A stretch of 64,000 bases of DNA, taken from the NCBI RefSeq assembly GCF_030646925.1, contig NZ_JAUSKL010000004.1, positions 11,064 to 75,063 of the forward strand, written 5' to 3'. Numbering within the stretch: position 1 is the stretch's first letter; each line of letters begins with the position of its first letter. The notes beneath the pieces are model-generated. The model was not told the origin of the DNA. It saw only the letters and a list, made by a program, of their open reading frames with translations, and searched no databases. This stretch comes from Candidatus Binatus sp. Its GTDB lineage: Bacteria > Desulfobacterota > Binatia > Binatales > Binataceae. Below, piece after piece: positions 26,867 to 44,303 of this stretch. Both the position numbers and the translations under genes were made by a program.

Positions 26867-28435
26867 ATGACTGCGGCAGGTGCAGGCGCGAGCCTTCAGG
26901 TCCGCAGCGAAACGAGTGCGTCGCGGCCGGGCTGGCGGCTTGTCGTCGGCTTCGCGGGCGCAACGATCCTGATTCACTTCCTTACCAACGGTGGATACGG
27001 ATACTTCCGCGACGAGCTTTACTTCATCGCTTGCGGTGAGCATCTGGCGGCGGGCTACGTCGATTTGCCGCCGATGGTCGCGCTGATCGCGAAGCTGAGC
27101 CGCGCGACGATGGGCGATTCGCTGTTCGCGATCCGATTTTCCCCCGCCCTGGCAGGCGGCGCGACCGTCGCGATCGCGGGACTCCTCGCGTGGGAACTCG
27201 GCGGTGGATTCTTCGCGCAGGCGCTCGCGATGCTGGCGGCGTTGACCGTGCCGGTTTATCTCGCATTGGGGAACATGCTCACGATGAATGCGTTCGATCC
27301 GATCTTCTGGATGGGATGCGCGTGGGCGCTGATCAGAATGATCAAGAGCGGCGACTTGCGCTGGTGGTTGGTTTTTGGATTGTCGGCGGGACTCGGGCTG
27401 GAGAACAAGGAATCGATCGTGTTCTTAGGCGCTGCGTTGTTGATTGGGCTAGCGCTGACGCCGCAGCGCAGGCTTCTAACTACCAGGTGGCTATGGCCGG
27501 GCGGGATGGTTGCGCTCGCGATCGCGCTGCCGACGGTGATCTGGCAACTGGCGCATCAGATGCCGATGTACGAGGAATTGAGCAACGTCAAGGGCGGCTC
27601 GAAGAATACTCCGCTCACGCTCTTCAGTTTCTTCGGCGGCCAGATGCTGCTGATGTCGCCGCTCACGCTGCCGATCTGGCTGAGTGGACTTTACTTTTTC
27701 CTGCTAAGTGAGCGGGGGCGCGAGTTGCGCGCGATCGGATGGGCATACGTTGTAGTCTACGGCGCGTTTGTGGTGCTGAAGGGTAAGGTTTACTACATCG
27801 CGCCGTTTTATCCCGTTTTGCTTGCGCCAGGCGCGGTGCAACTGGAGAGCGTGAGTTATGCTTTCTGGCGGCCTGCGGTCCGCTATGCGCTGCCATCGAT
27901 CGTTGCGATCGGCGGAATAGTATTCGCGCCGATGACACTGCCGATACTACCGGTCGAGACCTTCATCAGGTATCAGCGGGCGCTGGGCTTTGCGCAGGTG
28001 AGGACTGAAACGCGCGAGCTGGCCGACTTGCCGCAGACGTTTGCCGACATGTTCGGCTGGCCCGAGATGGTAGCCACGATCGCCAGGGTTTACTGGAGCC
28101 TGCCGCCCGAGGAGCGCAAGGAAGCAGCCATCTATGCGAGGAACTATGGCGAGGCCGCGGCGATCGATTTCTTCGGACCGCGCTATGGTTTGCCGAAGTC
28201 GATCAGCGGTCACATGGCCTACTACCTGTGGGGGCCTGGCGATAGTTCAGGCAAGGTGCTGATAACCGTCGGATCGCGGGAAGAAGGACTAAAGCGTGCC
28301 TACGCCAAAGTCGAGAAGGTGGCGATGGTAGGTACTCGCTACTCGATGCCTGACGAGCATGTGCCGGTCTTTCTGTGCCGCGAATCTACGTTGCCTATTC
28401 AGCAGATGTGGCCGCTCACTAAGGTGTATCAATAG
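26867..28435 (+). CDS. Glycosyltransferase family 39/ArnT-like membrane protein
   Basis: GYGYFRDELYFIACGEHLAAGYVDLPP, TMNAFDPIFW, GLENK, YGEAAAIDFFG..LP..ISGH. Confidence 0.85.
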   Translation: MTAAGAGASLQVRSETSASRPGWRLVVGFAGATILIHFLTNGGYGYFRDELYFIACGEHLAAGYVDLPPMVALIAKLSRATMGDSLFAIRFSPALAGGATVAIAGLLAWELGGGFFAQALAMLAALTVPVYLALGNMLTMNAFDPIFWMGCAWALIRMIKSGDLRWWLVFGLSAGLGLENKESIVFLGAALLIGLALTPQRRLLTTRWLWPGGMVALAIALPTVIWQLAHQMPMYEELSNVKGGSKNTPLTLFSFFGGQMLLMSPLTLPIWLSGLYFFLLSERGRELRAIGWAYVVVYGAFVVLKGKVYYIAPFYPVLLAPGAVQLESVSYAFWRPAVRYALPSIVAIGGIVFAPMTLPILPVETFIRYQRALGFAQVRTETRELADLPQTFADMFGWPEMVATIARVYWSLPPEERKEAAIYARNYGEAAAIDFFGPRYGLPKSISGHMAYYLWGPGDSSGKVLITVGSREEGLKRAYAKVEKVAMVGTRYSMPDEHVPVFLCRESTLPIQQMWPLTKVYQ

Positions 28436-28643: not shown

Positions 28644-31600
28644 ATGGCATCGAAATTTTGCGGCGGACCAGGTTTCAAGGTAGCGGCGGCTTTGCTCGCC
28701 GCAGTCGCGTTGACTATAGCGCTGGCGGAAGCCCAAAGCTTACCGCCGCCAGGGGCTTATCGACCGATTCCAAACTTTACGGGCGTAGGCGCCGGGTTGT
28801 TGTTTCGCACGGCCATCAACGACCGCTTTTCGGGCGTCGAGCCAATCGCGCCGACCCTGATCAGTATCGCGTTCGCGGATCTTCCCCAGGAAGAAGATGG
28901 CGGGGAGTTTTATTGCCATGATTGCCAGGCTACGACTCCTTGCACCGGCGGCGGCGCAGGCGCATGGGTCTTCGGCGAGCGCGGCGTGTGGAACTGCGTC
29001 GCGGGCTCGTTCGATGAGACCACGGGCGGCGATCTAAGCGGGCCATTCAGCAATGCAACCGTCAATACGGTACAGGCAGGTAAGACCCCGGTTACATCGA
29101 GCTATCGAGGAGCTCTTAGCTTGACCGGGAACTCCGGCGACGGCAGCGATCAGATTTCGGGCGTGAGTGTCAACGGCGCGATCAATCCGCGCGCCTTTGG
29201 CGCCGTGGGTCTTACGACGGCGAGCGCCTGTTCAACCGTGGCCAACTCGAACCTCGTCACGATCTCGCCGGCTGGCGATTTCCAAAACGGACAGGCCGTG
29301 ATGTGCGCGCACGCGGGAGCCGCGAACACGGCGACCGCGCCTTCGGCGCTAACGGTGCTTGCGACGGATGTGAGCGGTGCTGGCGCGACGACCTGGACTT
29401 ATAACATCTGTACCTTCGACGCGGTCACCGGCCAGATGAGCGGGTGCGTGACTCAGACCGCGACCAACGCGGCGACCCTCAATTCCGCGCTGAGCGGTGA
29501 AAACAATCTGCTGCATTGGACGAAAGGAACGGGCGGCACCGCGACGGTCATCTACAATCAAACCGGCGTGATTGGGTTGATCCCACTTGGCGTCACTTCG
29601 TTTCGCGACGTCGGCCAGGGAATCGAATCCTTCAATGAGATACCAGCAACGCCTCCAACGGGCCCGCTCAATCAACGTCTTTCGACGACAATAACCAGCG
29701 GAGAAGGAACCACGTCCTTACTGCTGGCAACTGCTGCGACAGCCGGGATCAGCGGACAGTATTTCAGCCACGACGACACTGCCGCGATCCAGTCGGCGTT
29801 CGCGGCGGCACAGAGTAACCAGACGACGCTGCGTTTTCCGACCGGCAAGTACAACTATTTCGGCGCCGGGCTGAGCGGGGCCTCGCAGAAGTTTCTCTCA
29901 ATCGAGGGGGAACCGCCGCTGAAGTCGATCTCGAGCGACCCTGCCAGCCAGTCCGCCATCTACCTCGCGGCGGGCGGCTATTTTATCGACAATTCGGCTG
30001 CAATTGTACAGGTCCAGTTGCGCAACATGACCTTTGTGGGCGGCCTCGGGGCGTTCCGCTCGACCTCGACTGGAGCGGTCGGCGTTGGGGAAAGGAAATT
30101 CTACAACAATGCCTTTCTGGACTTCACGGGCTGCGCGGTCTGCTGGAACGAAGCCGATTCTCCGTACCACTACGTCGAGAACAACAATTTTCGCGGCCTC
30201 GATTCGAACGCGACAATCGGCTACGGCTACGCCGGCAACAACGATTCGAGTCATTTCGTAAATAATACTCTCAACCGGGTGCGAATCGGCATAGCGGACG
30301 CGGGGAAGGGACTCGGACGGAATTACGTCAACAGCAATTTCATCCGCAGTTCAACCGCGCCTTTTTCGCGCGCGGACATTTGGTTTTCCAACACCGGTAT
30401 ATCCTCGGCTGCAACAGTGACCCGGGAGCGATTCGCCAACGAAAATATCAAGGCGGGCGATTATCACGTGCTGGTTGCGGATGCCGATTCTGCGACCCTG
30501 GTCGGCGATCAATTTCCCCTCGCTCCGCACGCGAATTACGGCGCCGGCGAAATAATCCTTGACGGCGCGATCACCAGCGGAGGGGCGGCGCTGACGTCGA
30601 ACACGGCGCATTTCCTGACTTCGGCCCATATCAGTGACTGGGTGCGGATAAAGGGCGCTGGCACGCAGGGCACCTGCGTGTGCGAACTGGTAGGACAGAT
30701 CAATTCAATCGACAGCGATGTGCAGGTCACGCTCGATAGCTCGACCCCGAATGCGAGCGCCACGGTTAGCAGTGCGATGGTGTTTTTCGGGACGGCATCA
30801 AGCAAGGAATTTCAACAGATTGCGGTGACTGATAGTTGGATCGCGGAAGGAGCAGTAACCCCGCAAACGTCCCTTGTTTACACCACCGCGCGAACGATGA
30901 TGGGCTGGTCCATCACAGGCAACACGCTTTACACTCCGAGCATCAACGGCCCGCTTCTCCAGTACCTCCCGCTGTCGGCGACCAACGCCCGCTCCAACCT
31001 CAATCTGATAGCAAACAACAACGGAGCCTCGATGGGGGCCAGTACCGACCCGTCGCAGGGAATGTACGCCTCTAACAACATATCGCCGGTTATGCTGGTC
31101 GATCCGCTGATTCAGATGACGACATGGAATCAGCCGCCGCCTTATCAAACGACGACTAACAATGCGGGCGCAATCGACTACCTGCCCGGCACAACCATCA
31201 ATTCATTTTCGCTCTCGACGGGCGTAACCAGGTCGGCGATTACGGACCGCTCCGGCGGCTCAGACGCCGCGGAAGTGAATTTCACCTCAAGCACCAACCC
31301 GGTGACTCTCATATTCAAGACGTTCACGCCGTCGGTTCTCGGGCTGTCGTGGGTTACTTTCGACTTCAAGAAGGCGAGCAGCTCAGCGCTGACGCATTTC
31401 TTCGTGTCAGTAGCGAAGAGCTCCAGTCCCGGCTGCTGCGCCGGTGGTGTGATCGCGAGCCGGCAAATCGACATTCCCGAGACTGGCGAATGGTACACGC
31501 TATCTATCCCGTTCGTTCCAACCGATACGACCACTTCGATCAACCTGTCGTTTCAAGCTGTAGGCGTCGATCCGAGCATCGAGACCGGCAGCATCGATAT

Positions 31601-31826
31601 TGGACGCGTGCATGTGTATCAACACGAAACGCCAGTTGACCTGAGCATCCTTCAAACCAGCGCGGCGGGAATCGAATATGGCCTTCCCAGCGTCGCGATG
31701 GGAGGAGGAGCCGCGCCGACGCTGGGCACGATCGGGGGGGGCGGTCCGGCGACGGCGGGCCAGAACTCGTGGCTGAAGCTATTCGATTCGACCGGCGCTG
31801 CGATCTACGTCCCGATCTGGAAGTAG
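28644..31826 (+). CDS. Secreted 1060-aa tailspike/pectate-lyase-like beta-helix protein
   Basis: Signal peptide ending AEA; Cys motif YCHDCQATTPCTGGGAGAW; DDTAAIQSAFAAA..TLRFPTGKY (beta-helix cap); Asn/Ser/Thr-rich coils; fibre-like C-terminus. Confidence 0.6.
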   Translation: MASKFCGGPGFKVAAALLAAVALTIALAEAQSLPPPGAYRPIPNFTGVGAGLLFRTAINDRFSGVEPIAPTLISIAFADLPQEEDGGEFYCHDCQATTPCTGGGAGAWVFGERGVWNCVAGSFDETTGGDLSGPFSNATVNTVQAGKTPVTSSYRGALSLTGNSGDGSDQISGVSVNGAINPRAFGAVGLTTASACSTVANSNLVTISPAGDFQNGQAVMCAHAGAANTATAPSALTVLATDVSGAGATTWTYNICTFDAVTGQMSGCVTQTATNAATLNSALSGENNLLHWTKGTGGTATVIYNQTGVIGLIPLGVTSFRDVGQGIESFNEIPATPPTGPLNQRLSTTITSGEGTTSLLLATAATAGISGQYFSHDDTAAIQSAFAAAQSNQTTLRFPTGKYNYFGAGLSGASQKFLSIEGEPPLKSISSDPASQSAIYLAAGGYFIDNSAAIVQVQLRNMTFVGGLGAFRSTSTGAVGVGERKFYNNAFLDFTGCAVCWNEADSPYHYVENNNFRGLDSNATIGYGYAGNNDSSHFVNNTLNRVRIGIADAGKGLGRNYVNSNFIRSSTAPFSRADIWFSNTGISSAATVTRERFANENIKAGDYHVLVADADSATLVGDQFPLAPHANYGAGEIILDGAITSGGAALTSNTAHFLTSAHISDWVRIKGAGTQGTCVCELVGQINSIDSDVQVTLDSSTPNASATVSSAMVFFGTASSKEFQQIAVTDSWIAEGAVTPQTSLVYTTARTMMGWSITGNTLYTPSINGPLLQYLPLSATNARSNLNLIANNNGASMGASTDPSQGMYASNNISPVMLVDPLIQMTTWNQPPPYQTTTNNAGAIDYLPGTTINSFSLSTGVTRSAITDRSGGSDAAEVNFTSSTNPVTLIFKTFTPSVLGLSWVTFDFKKASSSALTHFFVSVAKSSSPGCCAGGVIASRQIDIPETGEWYTLSIPFVPTDTTTSINLSFQAVGVDPSIETGSIDIGRVHVYQHETPVDLSILQTSAAGIEYGLPSVAMGGGAAPTLGTIGGGGPATAGQNSWLKLFDSTGAAIYVPIWK

Positions 31827-36406: not shown

Positions 36407-36857
36407 ATTCCTCAATTAGATTCGGCAAATTTGGTTTGGTTTCACGAAGTACGACCGAAACATCGGCGGCTGAAAACGTCGCTTGAGCGGGAACGAATCG
36501 AAGATGAATGGATTTCGCGTCCAAAGCGCGAATAAATTGCGCTTGGCTGCTGAATGATGATCTGGCATCATCGAGTCGTCGCAAATTGTCTTTGAGCAAA
36601 TTCTACTAGATTCACATCGAAATGGGGCATTCAGAGGTTTCGTTCCTTCGCGAGTCTCAAAACCAAGCCCGAAAACGATGGTTGCACGCTGGCGCGATTA
36701 CTCCGGACGGCGGGGCGGAGCACGTTCCAAGGCAGCGCGCCCAGGGTTAGCAACGCAATTTATACATCGCTTCTAGTCTCCAGATGGACTGATGCTTCTT
36801 CGCAAGGTACGTCGATGGTCTTTCTCGTGAATGGACGCTGGAGGGGTGGGAGAACTG

Positions 36858-38321
36858 ATGGATATCGAGCGAGTAGTCGCGCATTCGAGGGGTGGTCTGG
36901 GGGCACGGCAGAAACGGAAGATCGCCACTAAAATTGCAACGGCAGTTGGCGCGGCGATCTTGTGGGCGGTCGCACTGGCAGGATGCAACAGCGGCGGAGG
37001 AGGCGCGGTGAGCCCGGCGGGCCAAGCCGGGGTCCGCGACGAATTCGAGCATCATCGCGGTCGATTGCATCACGCAAAGGGCGTATGTGCCGCTGCCCGG
37101 CCTGAACGACAATCTGCACGGACAAGTCGCAGTGCTCGATTTGAGCGTCGATCCCGACCAGGCCAACCCGCTGATTACGATCATCGATATCGGACAAATC
37201 GCGTTGCCGCGAGCGGCGGCGGTGCATCTTGAAAGCGGTACCGTGCTGGTGCTGGTGGACAACGTGCTCGATACGGGCGTGCTGCTGCTGATCAATGAGG
37301 CCGACAACTCGCTCAGCGCGATTGCTTTCCCGACCGGCAGCCGTCCCGGCGAAAACTCGGGCGTGGTGGTCGATCCGGAAAACCTGACCGCGCTGATCTC
37401 GATGACCGACTCGGTCGATGATTGCACGGCTGGACTCGGCGGATGCACCAGGCGGTGTTCAATCTCACCTCGCGCACATTTGGTCCGCTGATTTTGACGT
37501 TGTTCGACGTGGATAGTTTCGCGCTGAACTTTTCGGACAACGTGGCGCTCTTTTCGTCCGATCTGGTTACGCCGCAACTTTTGGCGGTGAACGTACCGAA
37601 GGCGGACGTCTGCTCGATTATCGACAAGAACGTGGAGAATCTCAACGCCGATCCGGACGGGATCGCGGTGGATCCGACCACCAATATCTGGGTCGCGGGG
37701 AACTTCGAATCGCCACTCGCTTCGGTGATCAATTTTAACGGTTCGACCTTTACTGGCAGCGGCACTCTGACCTGCACGCTGACGGAGGCCGGCACGCCGC
37801 CCAATTCGATTAATCACGACACGGGGACTGGCGCATCGGGGATGGCGGGGGTGGCGATCAATCCGCGGACGCATCAGGCGCTCGTGACGGCGGTGGACGG
37901 CAATCAGATCGCGCTGCTAAGCCTCCCGAAGAAGACACTGACGCAAATAACGGCCGCGGACGTCAGCAGCGTGAGCGCCACTATCCCGCCGGATCCGGAG
38001 GGCACAGACTTCAACGCGGCAGAATTTCCGTACGGTGTCGTAATCGATAGTTGTCAAAATCGGGGCTACGTACTGGACGACAGCCGGAGCTTTCTGGCGC
38101 AGGTGGATCTGAAGACTCTCCAGAAGCATCCCGAGGTGATCGGCACGGCGCTGCCTGCGGGCACCTGCGCCGGCGTATCCACCTCGTTCCAATGTGACAA
38201 CGGCAACGGAGTGCGATTCTATCCGCTACCCGGGGCGTCGAGCAGTTCATCGATTCCGCTGCCAGCACAGTTTTCCGATGAACCTTACAAGCGCCGGAAG
38301 AGCGCGAAGTATCGAAACTAA
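36858..38321 (+). pseudogene. Beta-propeller-like lipoprotein (about 487 aa if repaired) broken by two frameshifts
   Basis: Frame 0 gives the signal and lipobox ALAGC (Cys codon 36984). The coherent sequence continues in the +1 frame from about 37024 (KPGSATNSSIIAVDCITQRAYVPLP...LGGCT) and returns to frame 0 at about 37449 (QAVFNLTSRTFG...). Frame 0 has a stop at 37230-37232. Confidence 0.75.
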
Positions 38322-38351
38322 CAAGTCAAATTTGATCGTCCATCTTTTCGG

Positions 38352-41300
38352 ATGAGGGCAGCTTCGATGACCAAACCTAGTTTCACGAAAGGATCAGAAG
38401 TGCCGGGTATTTCCAGCGAAGGAAGGCAATTGCCGCGGCGCCTGTCGTTCAGAGCGTCGCTTGTCTGGCTTAGCCTGCTCGCGATGCTACTGGTCCCGCT
38501 GAACGTTATGAGTGGCAGCCGCCTTCCCGGCGAACGTCGCGCGCATCATGGCGCTCGCCATCACCACCGTGGTCGTGATGGAGTACCGACTGACCCTCCC
38601 CCGCGGACAGGTCGTTTAGCAGCGGCAGAATGCGAGGTGCCCTCCGGATTGGCAAAGCTGTCCAAGTGTATCGGCAGCGATACGGCCAAAACGGTGATAA
38701 TCGGGGGCGCAACTGGAACGGGAGACTGCGCCGGCAGCGGCGTCACTGCCTATGTAGATCAGGCGGCGATGACGATGGGGCGGATCACGATTAACGCTGG
38801 CAGCGCACTCAAGGTGTTCGATCGGACAGCGCAATTGCCTGTGAAAGTCCATACTACCGGTATGGATGTGTTCGGCACCTTTGAAGTTGGTAACCCGGTG
38901 TGCCCGATCGGCACCATCAATCCTGCGACGGTGGTGAAGTTTACCTTCAAAGGACCTAAAGATCCCACCTGCACCAACAACAGTTGTCCCGGCTATACCA
39001 AGGGAATCCAGGTCGAGAAGGGCGGTACGCTTCGGATGTTTGGGGCGAAAGGAGCGCCTGCCAAAGGTGTGAGTTGGACCAATCTCGCAGACGCGGCAGG
39101 TCCGATAACCTACGACGCGGCCCACAACGTCAAGCGCCCGGCGAAATCACCCACCCAGATCGTGGTGGCTGACGACGTAACAGTGAAACCGAACGCATGG
39201 CAGGCGAACGATGTGATAGCGGTCGCAGGCACTGGCTTCAGTCCGTTCGAGACCGAGTTCGTAACTATTCTGAGCTTCGGCGCACTGACGGCGGCAGGCC
39301 GGATCGTTAACCTTTCACCATTCACGCCGCTCAAGTTCTACCATTTCGGTTCGTTGCCGCCGACCAAGGGGACAGTCAGCACCTGCAAGGACAAGAATGG
39401 CGCGCTGGTTCCGGCTTCTTTTTGCGACAAGGAGGATAGGAACTTTGGCGTTGACGAGCGAGCCGAAGTGGCGCTTATCAGCCGCAACATCAAGCTAAAC
39501 TCGGACACGCCGGCCGCGGGAATTGACAATCATTGGGGCGGAGAAACGCGGTTCATCGCGGGCTTTGCGGAGGTATCGATCCAGGGAGTCGAAATCGAGA
39601 AGTTTGGCAAGGAAAAGCTTGGGAGCTATCCTTTGCATTTCCATATGGATGGCGACGTGGTGAAGAGCGGATCGAAGGTGCTGCTCAACGCGAATAGCAT
39701 CCATCATAGCTACAACAAGTGCATCACCGTACATTCGACCCAGAATCTGACTATCACGAATAACGTGTGCGCGCGGATCGTCGGGCACATCTTCTACGAG
39801 GAAATCGGCGACGAGGATAACATCACGTTCACCCACAATTTGGGCCTGGGCGCGATGAGCAATTCGTTCGACATCAACGACTCCTTCAACGCGACCGATA
39901 ACACCGGATACAAGAGGGACGGCCTGATCAAGGCTTACTGGTGGCCGGGCGACTACCTGGTCGATCCACTCAACCTGGCTACCAACAAACTGCCGTTCGA
40001 TGCGTTCAAGATTCGCGACACCGACGATCCGTCGAATGGGACGGCGGGCCAATGCTTCAAGTTTGGCGATCCGAACGGTGCCGATAACGGCTCCTTTCTT
40101 CCAGCTGACCCATCGACCCCTCCATGTAAATCGACAGACTACTACCTCGAGCCCCCATCAGGATTCTGGATTGTCAATCCGAGTGCCAAGCTGAGTGCCA
40201 ATTCGATAGGTGGGTGCCAGGGAGAAGGCAAGGGCTACTGGTACGTGCCACCTTCGAGAGGACCCTTGGGCAGCAAGAAATTCATCCCGGTCGGCACCTA
40301 CGCCGGCTTAGGCGATCCGCACGGAGAATTCACCGACAATCGCGTTCACGGCTGCGATTCCGGACTCTACAGCGGTGACCAGCAGGATATCACAGCGGAA
40401 GCGCTGCAGCCCTATCAGAACGGAGTAAAGTCGTCGACCAGCCATCCGGTGGTCGGAGAATTCACCGGAATCGTAGCGACGCGTAACCGCAATCGGGGGC
40501 TTTGGTTGCGACCTAATTTCTACACCGTAAGGGATGCCCGGCTCGCGACTAATCGGGATAGCGTGTCGCTGGTGACTTCCGGAGGCCCTGACGGCAACTA
40601 TCCCGGAATCTATTCGCTGTTTAAAGATGCGGTAGTAGTAGGAGTCAGCCAGAATAACGTCGATCGTTTTGGACCATGCCCGGGCATCAGGAATATTGCC
40701 AATTTTTCCCAGGCAGGCGGCGGTAGATTCGGTTGCATCGACAAGACAACCGCCAAGAAAGGCTCGACAGGCACCGGCGGCGACCTAATCGGCAACGGTT
40801 ACCCCGACAACCGATGGAACCTGGCCGGATACATGATCTATGACGGTCCGGCGCTGATATTCCATGACCGCTTCGTCAATTTCAAAGTCGATCCAACCAA
40901 TCTGCTGACGACCACCGACGCAGCTTTTCTCAGCACTCCGCCGCCGCCAACTCCTCCGCCTCCTAGCGGAGTGTACGAAGGTGATGCCGCGTTGGGATGG
41001 TTTCAGGGCAATCAAAGCTCCTATCCGACCGCGACCGCAAGTAAGGACCTGGTCTGGGACAAGACGGATTTTCGGCATCAGGTATATACTGATCAGGTCA
41101 AGATTTCCGGCTTCCTGGATGGCGACAAGAACACTGCAATTATCGATCTCGACGGGACGCTTAGCCGCTACAAGGTCAAGGCAATCAGCGATACGACCTT
41201 GGACGGGCACCTGCATCCAATTTCGCTCAACAACCTGGAGCTGAATGCCGCGGGCGGCGATCCCGGCGGTTCAGTTGATGAGTGCCAGGCAACTGGGAAA

Positions 41301-42455
41301 CAGGATGCGAAGCTCGAGGGACGCGCCAGCGCGAACCTGTCGCCAGGAGAAGTAGGAGCGCTCGAATTCGAGGCGCTATTTCCGAATCCGCCCGCACCGG
41401 ACGCGAAGGTTGATGACAAACGGCACGAGCAGAAAATTTCATTCACCAAGGACTCGACAGAATTCAGCGGAGCGCTCCTTCAACATCCAGTCATGGTTCT
41501 GGACGGCCGCGATGCGCAAGGGATTTGGGAGCCTAAGGTGCAGTCTGGTTATGGCTACACCGTAAGCGCGAGCGCGGGCCTCCCTGCGGTCGTGCATGTA
41601 GGCTTGGCGGACGTCGTGAAGCCTAACATCACGGAAGACACGCCTTTCTACGTGCGGGTGGGTATCTGCTATCAAGGCACTGGCACCAACGCACAGAATG
41701 GACATCCTAAGGAAGGCGCTTTAACCGTTACTCAAGGCTACAGATCTTGGGGCGGAGGTGGCGTCGATCCTGCCGATCAGCTAATCAGGACGGCCTACAA
41801 CCAGTTGGATGGCCAGGCCAATGGACTGACCAAGACCGAGTCTTGCTTCAATATTGACCATCAAAACTATGTCAAGAACCAGACCTGTCCATCGGTTGGA
41901 GTGTTTCCGTTGCTGAGTGATACCTGCCCGGCGGGTGCGGACAAGAAAGACACCACGCGCAAGCTGTGCATCTACTCGAAGAAGACCTTGGAAGAGGCCG
42001 ATTCGACCTGTACCAATCCCTCGTGTCTCGTTTCCGGAGGGAAGCCGGTGCTGGACAAGTATTTCTATGATCCGACTACGGGCTGGCTCTTCTTCAACGT
42101 CGCACAGACCAGGGCCAACGCGCTCGGACCTTCGCCGCTGGGTGCATGTACGGGAGCAACCACAGATCCGTACTTTTGTCCCTCGAAGACAGGAGGCGAG
42201 AGTTACTATGTGTGTCCGGCTGAGGGGTGCTTTAGCTACGCCGTCACTTTGAACGATCCAAGCTGGGCTCCGGCGGCGTCCAACTGTCCGGATCCTTACG
42301 TCGCATACGGCACTCCGGCGACACCAACGCTCGATGGCAAACTGGTATCGGTTATCGATAGCAGCACAGTGACTCGGGTTCAGGACGCGGGAAAGGACGG
42401 TAAGTTCCCGCACTACAATCCGGCCGCCGAGCCGAAGGACTGCGTAACGCCGTAG
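38352..42455 (+). CDS. Secreted G8-domain, CEMIP/TMEM2-like beta-helix protein (1367 aa)
   Basis: Hydrophobic signal/anchor; G8-like KGIQVEKGGTLRMFG, SWTNL; DERAEVALISRNIK; LGSYPLHFHMDGD; SIHHSYNKCITVHST; GHIFYEEIGDE; SGFWIVNP; GYMIYDGP, collinear with motifs recalled from CEMIP/TMEM2. Confidence 0.82.
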   Translation: MRAASMTKPSFTKGSEVPGISSEGRQLPRRLSFRASLVWLSLLAMLLVPLNVMSGSRLPGERRAHHGARHHHRGRDGVPTDPPPRTGRLAAAECEVPSGLAKLSKCIGSDTAKTVIIGGATGTGDCAGSGVTAYVDQAAMTMGRITINAGSALKVFDRTAQLPVKVHTTGMDVFGTFEVGNPVCPIGTINPATVVKFTFKGPKDPTCTNNSCPGYTKGIQVEKGGTLRMFGAKGAPAKGVSWTNLADAAGPITYDAAHNVKRPAKSPTQIVVADDVTVKPNAWQANDVIAVAGTGFSPFETEFVTILSFGALTAAGRIVNLSPFTPLKFYHFGSLPPTKGTVSTCKDKNGALVPASFCDKEDRNFGVDERAEVALISRNIKLNSDTPAAGIDNHWGGETRFIAGFAEVSIQGVEIEKFGKEKLGSYPLHFHMDGDVVKSGSKVLLNANSIHHSYNKCITVHSTQNLTITNNVCARIVGHIFYEEIGDEDNITFTHNLGLGAMSNSFDINDSFNATDNTGYKRDGLIKAYWWPGDYLVDPLNLATNKLPFDAFKIRDTDDPSNGTAGQCFKFGDPNGADNGSFLPADPSTPPCKSTDYYLEPPSGFWIVNPSAKLSANSIGGCQGEGKGYWYVPPSRGPLGSKKFIPVGTYAGLGDPHGEFTDNRVHGCDSGLYSGDQQDITAEALQPYQNGVKSSTSHPVVGEFTGIVATRNRNRGLWLRPNFYTVRDARLATNRDSVSLVTSGGPDGNYPGIYSLFKDAVVVGVSQNNVDRFGPCPGIRNIANFSQAGGGRFGCIDKTTAKKGSTGTGGDLIGNGYPDNRWNLAGYMIYDGPALIFHDRFVNFKVDPTNLLTTTDAAFLSTPPPPTPPPPSGVYEGDAALGWFQGNQSSYPTATASKDLVWDKTDFRHQVYTDQVKISGFLDGDKNTAIIDLDGTLSRYKVKAISDTTLDGHLHPISLNNLELNAAGGDPGGSVDECQATGKQDAKLEGRASANLSPGEVGALEFEALFPNPPAPDAKVDDKRHEQKISFTKDSTEFSGALLQHPVMVLDGRDAQGIWEPKVQSGYGYTVSASAGLPAVVHVGLADVVKPNITEDTPFYVRVGICYQGTGTNAQNGHPKEGALTVTQGYRSWGGGGVDPADQLIRTAYNQLDGQANGLTKTESCFNIDHQNYVKNQTCPSVGVFPLLSDTCPAGADKKDTTRKLCIYSKKTLEEADSTCTNPSCLVSGGKPVLDKYFYDPTTGWLFFNVAQTRANALGPSPLGACTGATTDPYFCPSKTGGESYYVCPAEGCFSYAVTLNDPSWAPAASNCPDPYVAYGTPATPTLDGKLVSVIDSSTVTRVQDAGKDGKFPHYNPAAEPKDCVTP

Positions 42456-42539
42456 TGACGAGATCTAGCAGGGTGTGGCATGAGGTCGAACGATTAACCC
42501 CGCAAACGGGCGTCGAGCGCACCCAGGATTGAAATTCGG

Positions 42540-44303
42540 ATGCAAGCGAAGTTTGGGAGAAATATCGAACGTTTGGCTGGAGCATCGAGTATGGTGACTC
42601 TTCGAGGTCTGACAACCTGGCGCAACGGGCGAAGTCGAGTGAGTTACTCGATTGTAAGTGTCGCGCTGCTGGCGATGGCATTCGGTTGGGCTATCCAGCT
42701 TGCAGGACCTAGTAGCGCCCGCGCTGACGAGCTAACTGAGGTAGCGAACCGATCGCTGAATGAACCAGGAATCTTCTCAACGGCAGAGCCGTCGGTTCAG
42801 GCAGAAGTTGCAGGCCAGCCGCAGAGACGTCTGAAGGGCGCGCCGCCTGATCCTTGTTTGAAGAACCTGCCGGTTCCGGTGCCGCAAGGCGGAGCGCATC
42901 GAGTGATCCAGTTGGTCAACTGTTCGAGCCAGACCATGCTGGGAGCTGCGAACGCCGCTGCGAGATTCGGAACACCACTCACTCCGGTATTGCCGCGCGA
43001 GAAGACCTGGGTGCTGAAACCTGCGGGATCGCCCAACAACGCAAACGTTCTGACCATCGACATACCGCCGCAATGGGAAAATACCAAACCCGAAGGCAGT
43101 GTAGGTCCACGGCTCTGGGCGAGAACTGGTTGTCGATATGATGTCGCGTCGGATCGGGCGCAGTGCGAGACAGGCGGCTGCGGCGGCAAGTACGATTGCA
43201 GCAAGGCCAAGCTGGGAGCATCAGTCGGGACAACAGTTTCGGAGTGGACCTTCTACGAGCCAGTTGAGAGCGGCGATCACAAGATCAAGTACTTCAAGGA
43301 TTCCCCGGATATCAGCGCGGTGGATGGAGTGAATCTGAACATGGACATCCAGCCGCTCGGCGGCAGCCCAAAAGATCCGTTTGACGCGCAAGGCGGTCAC
43401 GATATCGGATGGCTGGCGGAAAACTACCCGCTCAGCCAACACGGCAAGGATCTTCGGGCAGCGGGCAAATGCGACCCCGATTTTCGGCTCAAGCGATCGG
43501 ATCTCACGACCGGCTTGTATGCATTTGTGATCGTAGCGAACGACCGCAAACCGAAGGGAGGAGATGGGACGGTGGCCTGCTTCTCGAATTGCGCTAGATA
43601 CGCCTACCCGACACCGCCGGATAAGAGCTGCGACGCCAGCGATCGCGATTCGAAGTGCTATAAGTGGAAGGCTTTTTGTCTCGGCGATCCTACGCAATAC
43701 GGCCAGAAGTGCACTAAAGACAGTGACTGTCCGGTGGCGGGTTCGTGTTGGGATAATCCAGGCTCTAAACTCGACCATACCTGCCAGGGCCGGGCATTCA
43801 TCAAGAAGAACACCTGTCCCGAAAAAGTTTGTACCTTTCCTTACAACTATAGAGATCCGGTCAACGGTACAGTCTTCAAATCCACACAGCCTCCGTTCGG
43901 CAATTGCGACGATGTCAGCACGGACAAGCGCGACTGCATCGGCGACGACACCATTCACGAGGTATTGCCCAAGGCGTATTCGTGGCCCAACGATCCGCAG
44001 GTTTACGGTGGCGACGCGAAAGCCTACCGAGTCATCATCGCGCCAGGCGGCACCAACATCCCGATTACGCCCTTGGCACCCATTCCGGTATGCAGCACGC
44101 TGCCCGGGATATACGACTATTCCAAGTGGTATGGAGGGGCGGGGAAGTGCATAAACGGGAACACCGACTGCCATCCCTGCGACATCGAGCTAAACAAAAA
44201 CGGCGCGGTGTTCGGGGTAGCGCGTCCGAGACCTGATTCGTGGTCTTGCAACCTTCCTCCCGCGGCTTCCGGGAACGACGGGGTTATCTGCAAGTGGAAG
44301 TAG
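42540..44303 (+). CDS. Secreted thaumatin-like (PR-5 fold) protein with Cys-rich insertions (587 aa; start uncertain)
   Basis: Signal ending SARA; IQLVNCS, RLWARTGC..D...QCETGGCGG..DC, TVSEWTF, DSPDISAVDGVNLNM, AYSWPND; 26 Cys counted. Confidence 0.85.
   Translation: MQAKFGRNIERLAGASSMVTLRGLTTWRNGRSRVSYSIVSVALLAMAFGWAIQLAGPSSARADELTEVANRSLNEPGIFSTAEPSVQAEVAGQPQRRLKGAPPDPCLKNLPVPVPQGGAHRVIQLVNCSSQTMLGAANAAARFGTPLTPVLPREKTWVLKPAGSPNNANVLTIDIPPQWENTKPEGSVGPRLWARTGCRYDVASDRAQCETGGCGGKYDCSKAKLGASVGTTVSEWTFYEPVESGDHKIKYFKDSPDISAVDGVNLNMDIQPLGGSPKDPFDAQGGHDIGWLAENYPLSQHGKDLRAAGKCDPDFRLKRSDLTTGLYAFVIVANDRKPKGGDGTVACFSNCARYAYPTPPDKSCDASDRDSKCYKWKAFCLGDPTQYGQKCTKDSDCPVAGSCWDNPGSKLDHTCQGRAFIKKNTCPEKVCTFPYNYRDPVNGTVFKSTQPPFGNCDDVSTDKRDCIGDDTIHEVLPKAYSWPNDPQVYGGDAKAYRVIIAPGGTNIPITPLAPIPVCSTLPGIYDYSKWYGGAGKCINGNTDCHPCDIELNKNGAVFGVARPRPDSWSCNLPPAASGNDGVICKWK

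Follow-up and report, generated by a model that had tools for sequence, protein, structure and literature searches.

Among the closest described relatives of the protein considered here are TMEM2 (human and mouse CEMIP2, PDB 8C6I) and its paralogue CEMIP (KIAA1199/HYBID), animal proteins whose status as enzymes and the location of whose active site are disputed (PMC10206443 versus PMC10474455). The Pfam domain order in animal TMEM2 is G8, a first ILEI domain (GG-1), CEMIP_beta-hel, CEMIP_X and a second ILEI domain (GG-2). Loss of activity has been reported only for TMEM2 substitutions at R265, D273 and D286, which sit in lectin-like domain 1 (PMC10206443), and a review of 2025 also connects activity with GG-1, through CEMIP R187 and mouse TMEM2 H248 and A303 (PMC12423501). 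Within the beta-helix of TMEM2, neither catalytic nor Ca-binding residues have been assigned (PMC10206443), and TMEM2 activity is reported to be calcium-dependent (PMC10474455). A lectin-free set of the same modules, namely G8, beta-helix and domain X, is found in fibrocystin (PKHD1) and PKHD1L1, which we compared by their published description only; in fibrocystin, these modules form part of a receptor of 4000 aa (bioRxiv 10.64898/2026.10.19.758525). Here we analysed a 64,000-nucleotide stretch of Candidatus Binatus sp. (contig NZ_JAUSKL010000004.1, positions 11,064 to 75,063, forward strand; hereafter, the window), which carries a gene whose product, the G8 protein, is truly homologous to the TMEM2/CEMIP core, that is, to its G8 domain, small sandwich, beta-helix and domain X (Table 1).

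The gene is a single unbroken open reading frame (ORF), and the product of the public gene caller differs from ours only in starting at M6 (alternative start 38367; 1362 aa). Pfam assigns to the protein the CEMIP_beta-hel domain (PF24606, E 2.2e-40, 139 bits, cut-off 27.3) and the G8 domain (PF10162, E 1.7e-6). A single-sequence phmmer search of all PDB sequences returned one match only, the human TMEM2 ectodomain 8c6i (E 1.6e-23), and a profile built from 58 bacterial relatives found the same entry in five collinear pieces (E 3.4e-62), again as the sole match at E ≤ 1. In that comparison the G8 domain aligned to 8c6i chain positions 55-163 (about TMEM2 137-245), while profile pieces 221-435 and 529-770 aligned to chain positions 335-541 and 580-806 (about TMEM2 417-623 and 662-888). 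Profile-to-profile comparison with hhalign, using 11 vertebrate TMEM2 sequences, yielded a single 852-column alignment (probability 100, E 3.4e-58, 28% identity), which spans TMEM2 from residue 127, the start of G8, to residue 1177, the end of domain X. TMEM2 sequences were used directly throughout, and CEMIP was compared through the Pfam CEMIP models only.

The structural comparison agreed with this picture. An AlphaFold2 model of residues 87-1286 (predicted local distance difference test, pLDDT, 87; predicted template-modelling score, pTM, 0.90) was searched against the PDB with Foldseek, a check proposed in an earlier note made from the sequence alone, and 8c6i came first (E 5.1e-34, template-modelling score, TM, 0.56/0.53). 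The runners-up were about 26 orders of magnitude weaker (E about 1e-8 to 1e-2, TM 0.12-0.19). These next-best matches are beta-helix glycan depolymerases (Klebsiella K1 capsule lyase 7W1C, phage tailspike depolymerases, GH110, GH87 and the fucoidan lyase FdlA), which have a right-handed parallel beta-helix in common with the G8 protein but no sequence-level match to it; the resemblance in fold is generic. Given the profile search, the hhalign result and the Foldseek gap to the runners-up, the likeness to TMEM2 is specific, and extends beyond G8 and generic beta-helix repeats as the earlier note had supposed. The note's claim of collinearity with TMEM2 over more than 800 aa is borne out by the 852-column alignment, and all of the motifs that it had quoted could be located: DERAEVALISRNI at residues 368-380, YPLHFHM at 426-432, SIHHSYNKCITVHST at 449-463 and GHIFYEEIGDE at 478-488, followed in the second half by FWIVNP at 605-610, GYW at 628-630 and YDGP at 830-833. 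G8 turns, small sandwich, CEMIP-type beta-helix and domain X follow one another in the same sequence in both proteins, which differ in two loops, the bacterial one being longer at TMEM2 627-662 and shorter at 733-756.

The description of the protein as a near full-length homologue holds for the core, TMEM2 127-1177, and fails for two segments. TMEM2 262-415, the lectin-like GG-1 domain, falls opposite a gap, between residues 258 and 259 of the bacterial protein, in both the hhalign and MAFFT alignments, and TMEM2 1178-1383, comprising GG-2 and the C-terminal helix, is without a bacterial counterpart, the alignment stopping at residue 1177. About 55 residues remain after C1312 in the bacterial protein, compared to about 215 after C1166 in TMEM2. 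Consistently, the ILEI/PANDER Pfam model found no match in the bacterial protein even at E ≤ 10, versus two matches in animal TMEM2 (3.7e-37). GG-1 and GG-2 are thus absent from the bacterial protein, and since the whole of GG-1 is absent, so are the equivalents of R265, D273 and D286 (CEMIP R187), which gives the residue check proposed in the earlier note a negative outcome. The earlier note had named two findings that together would count against it, namely similarity confined to G8 plus generic beta-helix repeats and absence of the key TMEM2 residues; it is the second of these that was found.

This absence bears directly on whether the G8 protein could be a bacterial hyaluronidase, or a glycosaminoglycan depolymerase, working on hyaluronan in the manner of TMEM2 and CEMIP. 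The homology to the TMEM2 core would favour such an activity, as would the conservation of an acidic loop (see below) in view of the calcium dependence reported for TMEM2 (PMC10474455). We nevertheless consider it very unlikely: GG-1 is missing together with all of the residues tied to hyaluronan degradation (PMC10206443; PMC12423501), the window sequence occurs in a groundwater metagenome run, the family resides in free-living soil, groundwater and marine bacteria, and no uronate or amino-sugar catabolic genes lie nearby. Neither were there Pfam or PDB sequence matches to the classical hyaluronidases (GH56, PL8 and GH84). Because the lectin domain is missing and the hosts are free-living, hyaluronan is an unlikely substrate, and the prokaryotic model proposed in the earlier note is plausible for the conserved core of these proteins but not for hyaluronan recognition.

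The C-terminal region, in which the earlier note had seen a Cys-rich domain, is indeed rich in cysteine, with 13 of the 30 Cys residues of the protein lying beyond residue 1100. By profile alignment, however, it appears to be largely a divergent and enlarged domain X and not an additional domain. Pfam CEMIP_X (PF24605) was undetected at E ≤ 10, though the hhalign alignment runs through TMEM2 993-1177, with collinear conserved positions (bacterial protein/TMEM2) at Y1069/1044, C1106/1074, G1244/1126 and C1293/1149. Relative to TMEM2, the bacterial domain X would be enlarged by Cys-rich inserts of 70 and 23 aa.

At the opposite end, the G8 protein resembles TMEM2 in having a hydrophobic segment followed by a linker and then a Cys-rich body, which in the bacterial protein is likewise predicted to be extracytoplasmic. 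The hydrophobic segment, judged by a hydropathy heuristic, contains no lipobox and may serve either as a signal peptide or as a signal anchor. It is present in nearly all of the 58 relatives, and this, together with an even number of Cys residues confined to the mature part (none precedes residue 94), suggests that the G8 protein is exported. The His-rich linker and the poly-Pro insert reported in the earlier note are both present, and close relatives (P0005, P0007 and P0028) have comparable basic, Pro-rich linkers.

We then asked which residues bacteria and vertebrates share, by aligning 11 vertebrate TMEM2 sequences with 71 proteins of the bacterial family, the most distant of which have about 35% identity. 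Identical residues conserved at ≥90% in both groups occupy 106 columns, of which about 30 are polar, including six His. With paired numbers giving the position in the bacterial protein (P0001) and in TMEM2, respectively, the shared polar residues begin with D287/431, E302/446 and H331/471, and continue along the beta-helix with D368/480, R370/482, R378/490, Y426/547, H429/550, H431/552, S449/573, H452/576, C457/581, H461/585, H479/603, E484/608 and N496/620. Further along the protein follow W606/666, N617/677, Q623/683, W630/688, N663/719, R664/720, H666/722, W718/788, R720/790, Y830/874, D831/875, D923/943, D925/945, D932/952, D934/954 and N960/980. The His run falls on consecutive predicted beta-helix strands (model strands 342-349, 363-367, 372-378 and 393-397), and this His/Asp/Glu/Arg signature, common to TMEM2 and the G8 protein, is a candidate catalytic or metal-binding site. 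Both proteins also carry the DGDKN...D.DG loop, whose residues D923, D925, D932 and D934 are invariant in the 71 bacterial proteins and conserved in TMEM2. In the bacterial loop, which runs from D923 through D934 to the Gly that follows, Asp or Asn occupies positions 1, 3, 5 and 12, a spacing of the EF-hand type, which makes residues 923-934 a putative Ca2+ site.

The G8 protein thus represents the TMEM2/CEMIP core alone, and we consider it reasonably probable that it is exported and disulfide-rich and acts as a glycan-active beta-helix enzyme whose substrate is probably not hyaluronan. Such a protein would bind an extracellular or envelope polysaccharide and cleave it or modify it in another way, with an active site built from the beta-helix His, Asp, Glu and Arg residues common to TMEM2 and with Ca2+ possibly bound at the conserved Asp loop; within its own subclade, a beta-propeller lipoprotein, tethered to the membrane and encoded immediately upstream, may be its working partner. 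Several observations weigh against this reading. No NCBIfam model matches the G8 protein, and no Pfam or NCBIfam model of the classified beta-helix glycoside hydrolases (GH) and polysaccharide lyases (PL) does so (e.g., GH28, GH87, GH110 and PL1/3/6/9), nor does it show a canonical catalytic motif of a GH or PL family. Clustering of neighbouring ORFs over 80 loci revealed no recurrent sugar-utilisation genes near family members, the recurrent neighbours being generic (short-chain dehydrogenase/reductase, luciferase-like, coenzyme A (CoA)-transferase, alcohol dehydrogenase and acyl-CoA dehydrogenase families), and a carbohydrate-utilisation context was rejected on this ground. Moreover, the presumed partner gene is frameshifted in the window, and reports on the purified human TMEM2 ectodomain conflict, one study finding it inactive (PMC10206443) and another active (PMC10474455).

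Some of these observations would equally suit a non-catalytic surface or periplasmic protein engaged in glycan binding, adhesion or scaffolding, in which the conserved residues serve folding or ligand binding only. This is the main rival explanation, which we take seriously but rate as doubtful. It would account for the lack of matching GH or PL models and of sugar-utilisation neighbours, and it agrees with the study in which the purified human TMEM2 ectodomain had no detectable activity and its active site could not be assigned (PMC10206443). The TMEM2-homology modules of fibrocystin, which has two sets of G8, beta-helix and domain X and no known activity (bioRxiv 10.64898/2026.10.19.758525), may offer a parallel for such a role. 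However, six His together with Asp, Glu and Arg are invariant from Binataceae to vertebrates over 2.46 substitutions per site, a degree of conservation seen more typically in chemical sites than in scaffolds; the nearest structural neighbours after TMEM2 are all glycan-cleaving enzymes; and purified TMEM2 was active in the hands of another group (PMC10474455).

The preferred reading, that of a glycan-active enzyme, can be extended into a more specific proposal, which we think improbable as a whole. It holds that H429, H431, H452, H461 and H479, along with D368, R370, E484 and the Asp loop 923-934, would form the real active centre of the entire CEMIP/TMEM2/fibrocystin superfamily, possibly metal-dependent and with a chemistry unlike that of known Asp/Glu hydrolases and Ca-lyases, and that in bacteria the propeller lipoprotein would take over the substrate-presenting role of the animal GG-1 domain.

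The G8 protein is a member of a large bacterial family that has diversified vertically, whose proteins have 1250-1450 aa and are already labelled in databases. Our literature search found no paper on its bacterial members. A word-indexed protein search returned at least 366 significant full-length relatives, the best 120 of which have 1100-1480 aa, 40-78% identity and 71-100% query coverage, with PF24606, and in most cases also G8, already annotated. The named relatives, labelled 'G8 domain-containing protein', come from Candidatus Binatus and other Binataceae, Bryobacteraceae, Acidobacteriaceae and NC10. When one genome was taken per species, 157 loci with a relative were found across several phyla, the best 80 of which include Binataceae and 'delta proteobacterium' metagenome-assembled genomes, Bryobacterales, Methylomirabilota, Burkholderiales, Halioglobus, Shewanella, Myxococcota and Rhizomicrobium. 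Among 1.84 billion cluster representatives (50% identity), phmmer matched 2727, 1281 and 147 clusters at E ≤ 1e-3, ≤ 1e-10 and ≤ 1e-30, respectively. In its invariant residues, its N-terminal export segment and its Cys pattern, the present copy matches this family and shows no difference in kind; what sets it apart is its His-rich linker, its poly-Pro insert, its frameshifted partner gene and a thaumatin-like downstream neighbour unique to it. Full-length members with 42-43% identity were also seen in cultured Burkholderiales, namely Variovorax jilinensis J22P168 (L033) and Xenophilus sp. L33, which has two copies (L027 and L038); these organisms are practical starting points for genetics and expression.

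In a FastTree phylogeny (1080 trimmed columns, 71 bacterial sequences), vertebrate TMEM2 formed one clade, joined to the bacteria by a branch of 2.46 substitutions per site, compared to 0.73 for the longest branch within the bacterial family. The tree is unrooted, and its animal side consists of vertebrate TMEM2 alone. These branch lengths exclude a recent transfer in either direction, and the clue to the origin of the family that the earlier note had inferred did not materialise, as the tree gives no direction and only the one long branch. To the idea that the gene was recently acquired from an animal, or that this lineage was the direct donor of the animal genes, we accordingly give almost no credence. 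The G+C content is slightly lower across positions 38000-44000, which hold the G8 and thaumatin-like genes, than in the flanks (0.57 versus about 0.62), which would speak for this idea, but the long branch, a family spanning several bacterial phyla at 35-78% identity and the differing domain architectures all speak against it. A separate observation concerns an invertebrate record, the Lingula anatina 'cell surface hyaluronidase' (P0220, 1375 aa), which contains two stretches of CEMIP_beta-hel and, in its middle, an ADH_N domain; the gene model is probably fused or mis-predicted, and the record was left out of the alignments.

Directly upstream of the G8 gene, ending 30 nt before it, lies the gene for the beta-propeller lipoprotein, the family of which is about 445-540 aa long with a conserved lipobox. 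No Pfam match was found for this lipoprotein, and its structural model (pTM 0.77) is of the 7-bladed-propeller type, resembling YncE, YVTN and WD40 propellers. Among the 80 representative loci, 13 have the propeller and G8 genes side by side, as do three more close relatives, and this arrangement is confined to the close subclade; the propeller gene is located upstream on the same strand everywhere except in L030 and L049, where it is downstream. In the window, two compensating frameshifts, near 37030 and 37449, spread the gene over three reading frames: the lipobox lies in the ORF 36831-37232, and tblastn places residues 56-190 of the intact homologue at 37039-37449 and residues 192-468 at 37449-38276. 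The same groundwater run, assembled independently by Logan, gave an identical sequence with no indels, which, coming from the same sample, is not independent proof against assembly error. The window copy is an apparent pseudogene, unless both assemblies share the same error.

In a relative of 73% identity (L087:563-3918), two PMT_2 (ArnT/GT39-like) glycosyltransferase genes stand directly upstream of the propeller-G8 pair, and the window has a PMT_2 gene (26867-28435) about 10 kb upstream of the G8 gene. A loose link of the G8 locus to envelope glycosylation is possible via these genes.

Table 1 Coordinates in the window of the G8 gene, its parts and the two adjacent genes (aa, residues of the G8 protein)
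Feature	Coordinates	Strand	Basis or remark
Whole gene: putatively exported protein with G8, CEMIP-type beta-helix and domain X, 1367 aa	38352..42455	+	ORF, Pfam, hhalign to TMEM2, Foldseek to 8c6i
N-terminal hydrophobic segment, aa 35-55, ASLVWLSLLAMLLVPLNVMSG, RR before the segment	38454..38516	+	Hydropathy maximum 2.31 at residue 36
His/Arg- and Pro-rich linker, aa 56-92, HHGARHHHRGR at 65-75	38517..38627	+	Sequence
G8 domain, aa 130-246, opening turns of the beta-helix	38739..39089	+	PF10162, 28.4 bits vs cut-off 22.9
Small sandwich-like insert, aa ~260-362, W283..D287 motif, approximate boundaries	39129..39437	+	W283/427 and D287/431 conserved (P0001/TMEM2); animal proteins have GG-1 in addition at this site
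CEMIP-type parallel beta-helix core, aa ~363-850, YDGP motif at its end	39438..40901	+	PF24606, 139 bits; model pLDDT high
Polar signature D368, R370, R378, Y426, H429, H431, S449, H452, C457, H461, H479, E484	39453..39815	+	Each ≥90% in both groups
Poly-Pro insert PPPPTPPPP, aa 863-871	40938..40964	+	Variable in the family; consensus without conserved residues here
Putative enlarged Cys-rich domain X equivalent, aa ~880-1320, KYFYDPTTGWLFF at 1236-1248	40989..42311	+	hhalign, collinear conserved positions
EF-hand-like acidic loop DGDKNTAIIDLDG, aa 923-935, matching TMEM2 943-955 DGDKNS....D.DG	41118..41156	+	Conservation; profile piece 848-868 to 8c6i 861-881
Beta-propeller lipoprotein gene, three reading frames	36831..38321	+	tblastn of the intact 484-aa L001 homologue
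Thaumatin-like protein, 587 aa, secreted, Cys-rich	42540-44303	+	PF00314, 4.5e-14; 84 nt downstream of the G8 gene

On the downstream side, a thaumatin-like gene next to a G8 gene was found by tblastn in none of 86 loci; L088 has no such gene downstream, and the incomplete downstream ORF of L089 is unrelated. The adjacency thus looks specific to this genome, and a three-gene unit of propeller, G8 and thaumatin-like genes was rejected, given that the last occurs in none of the 86 loci and the propeller in the close subclade only. The wider flanks hold housekeeping or unrelated genes, coding for an SLT transglycosylase, a PAS histidine kinase, thiE, the PMT_2 glycosyltransferase, a major facilitator superfamily transporter and MoeA. 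Adjoining the PMT_2 gene is a secreted ORF of 1060 aa (28644-31826, + strand) with no Pfam match; it was considered as a possible relative of the G8 protein and rejected, as the two have no BLASTP similarity.

The value of these results is tempered by the size of the family and its existing database label, and by the absence of the lectin domain that carries all of the current hyaluronan mutagenesis data. Regardless, a bacterial family consisting of the core only reduces the problem to a short list of residues that extends from bacteria to vertebrates and can be mutated in both systems. If the shared residues were indeed the active centre, the question of whether TMEM2 is an enzyme could be decided with a small bacterial protein.

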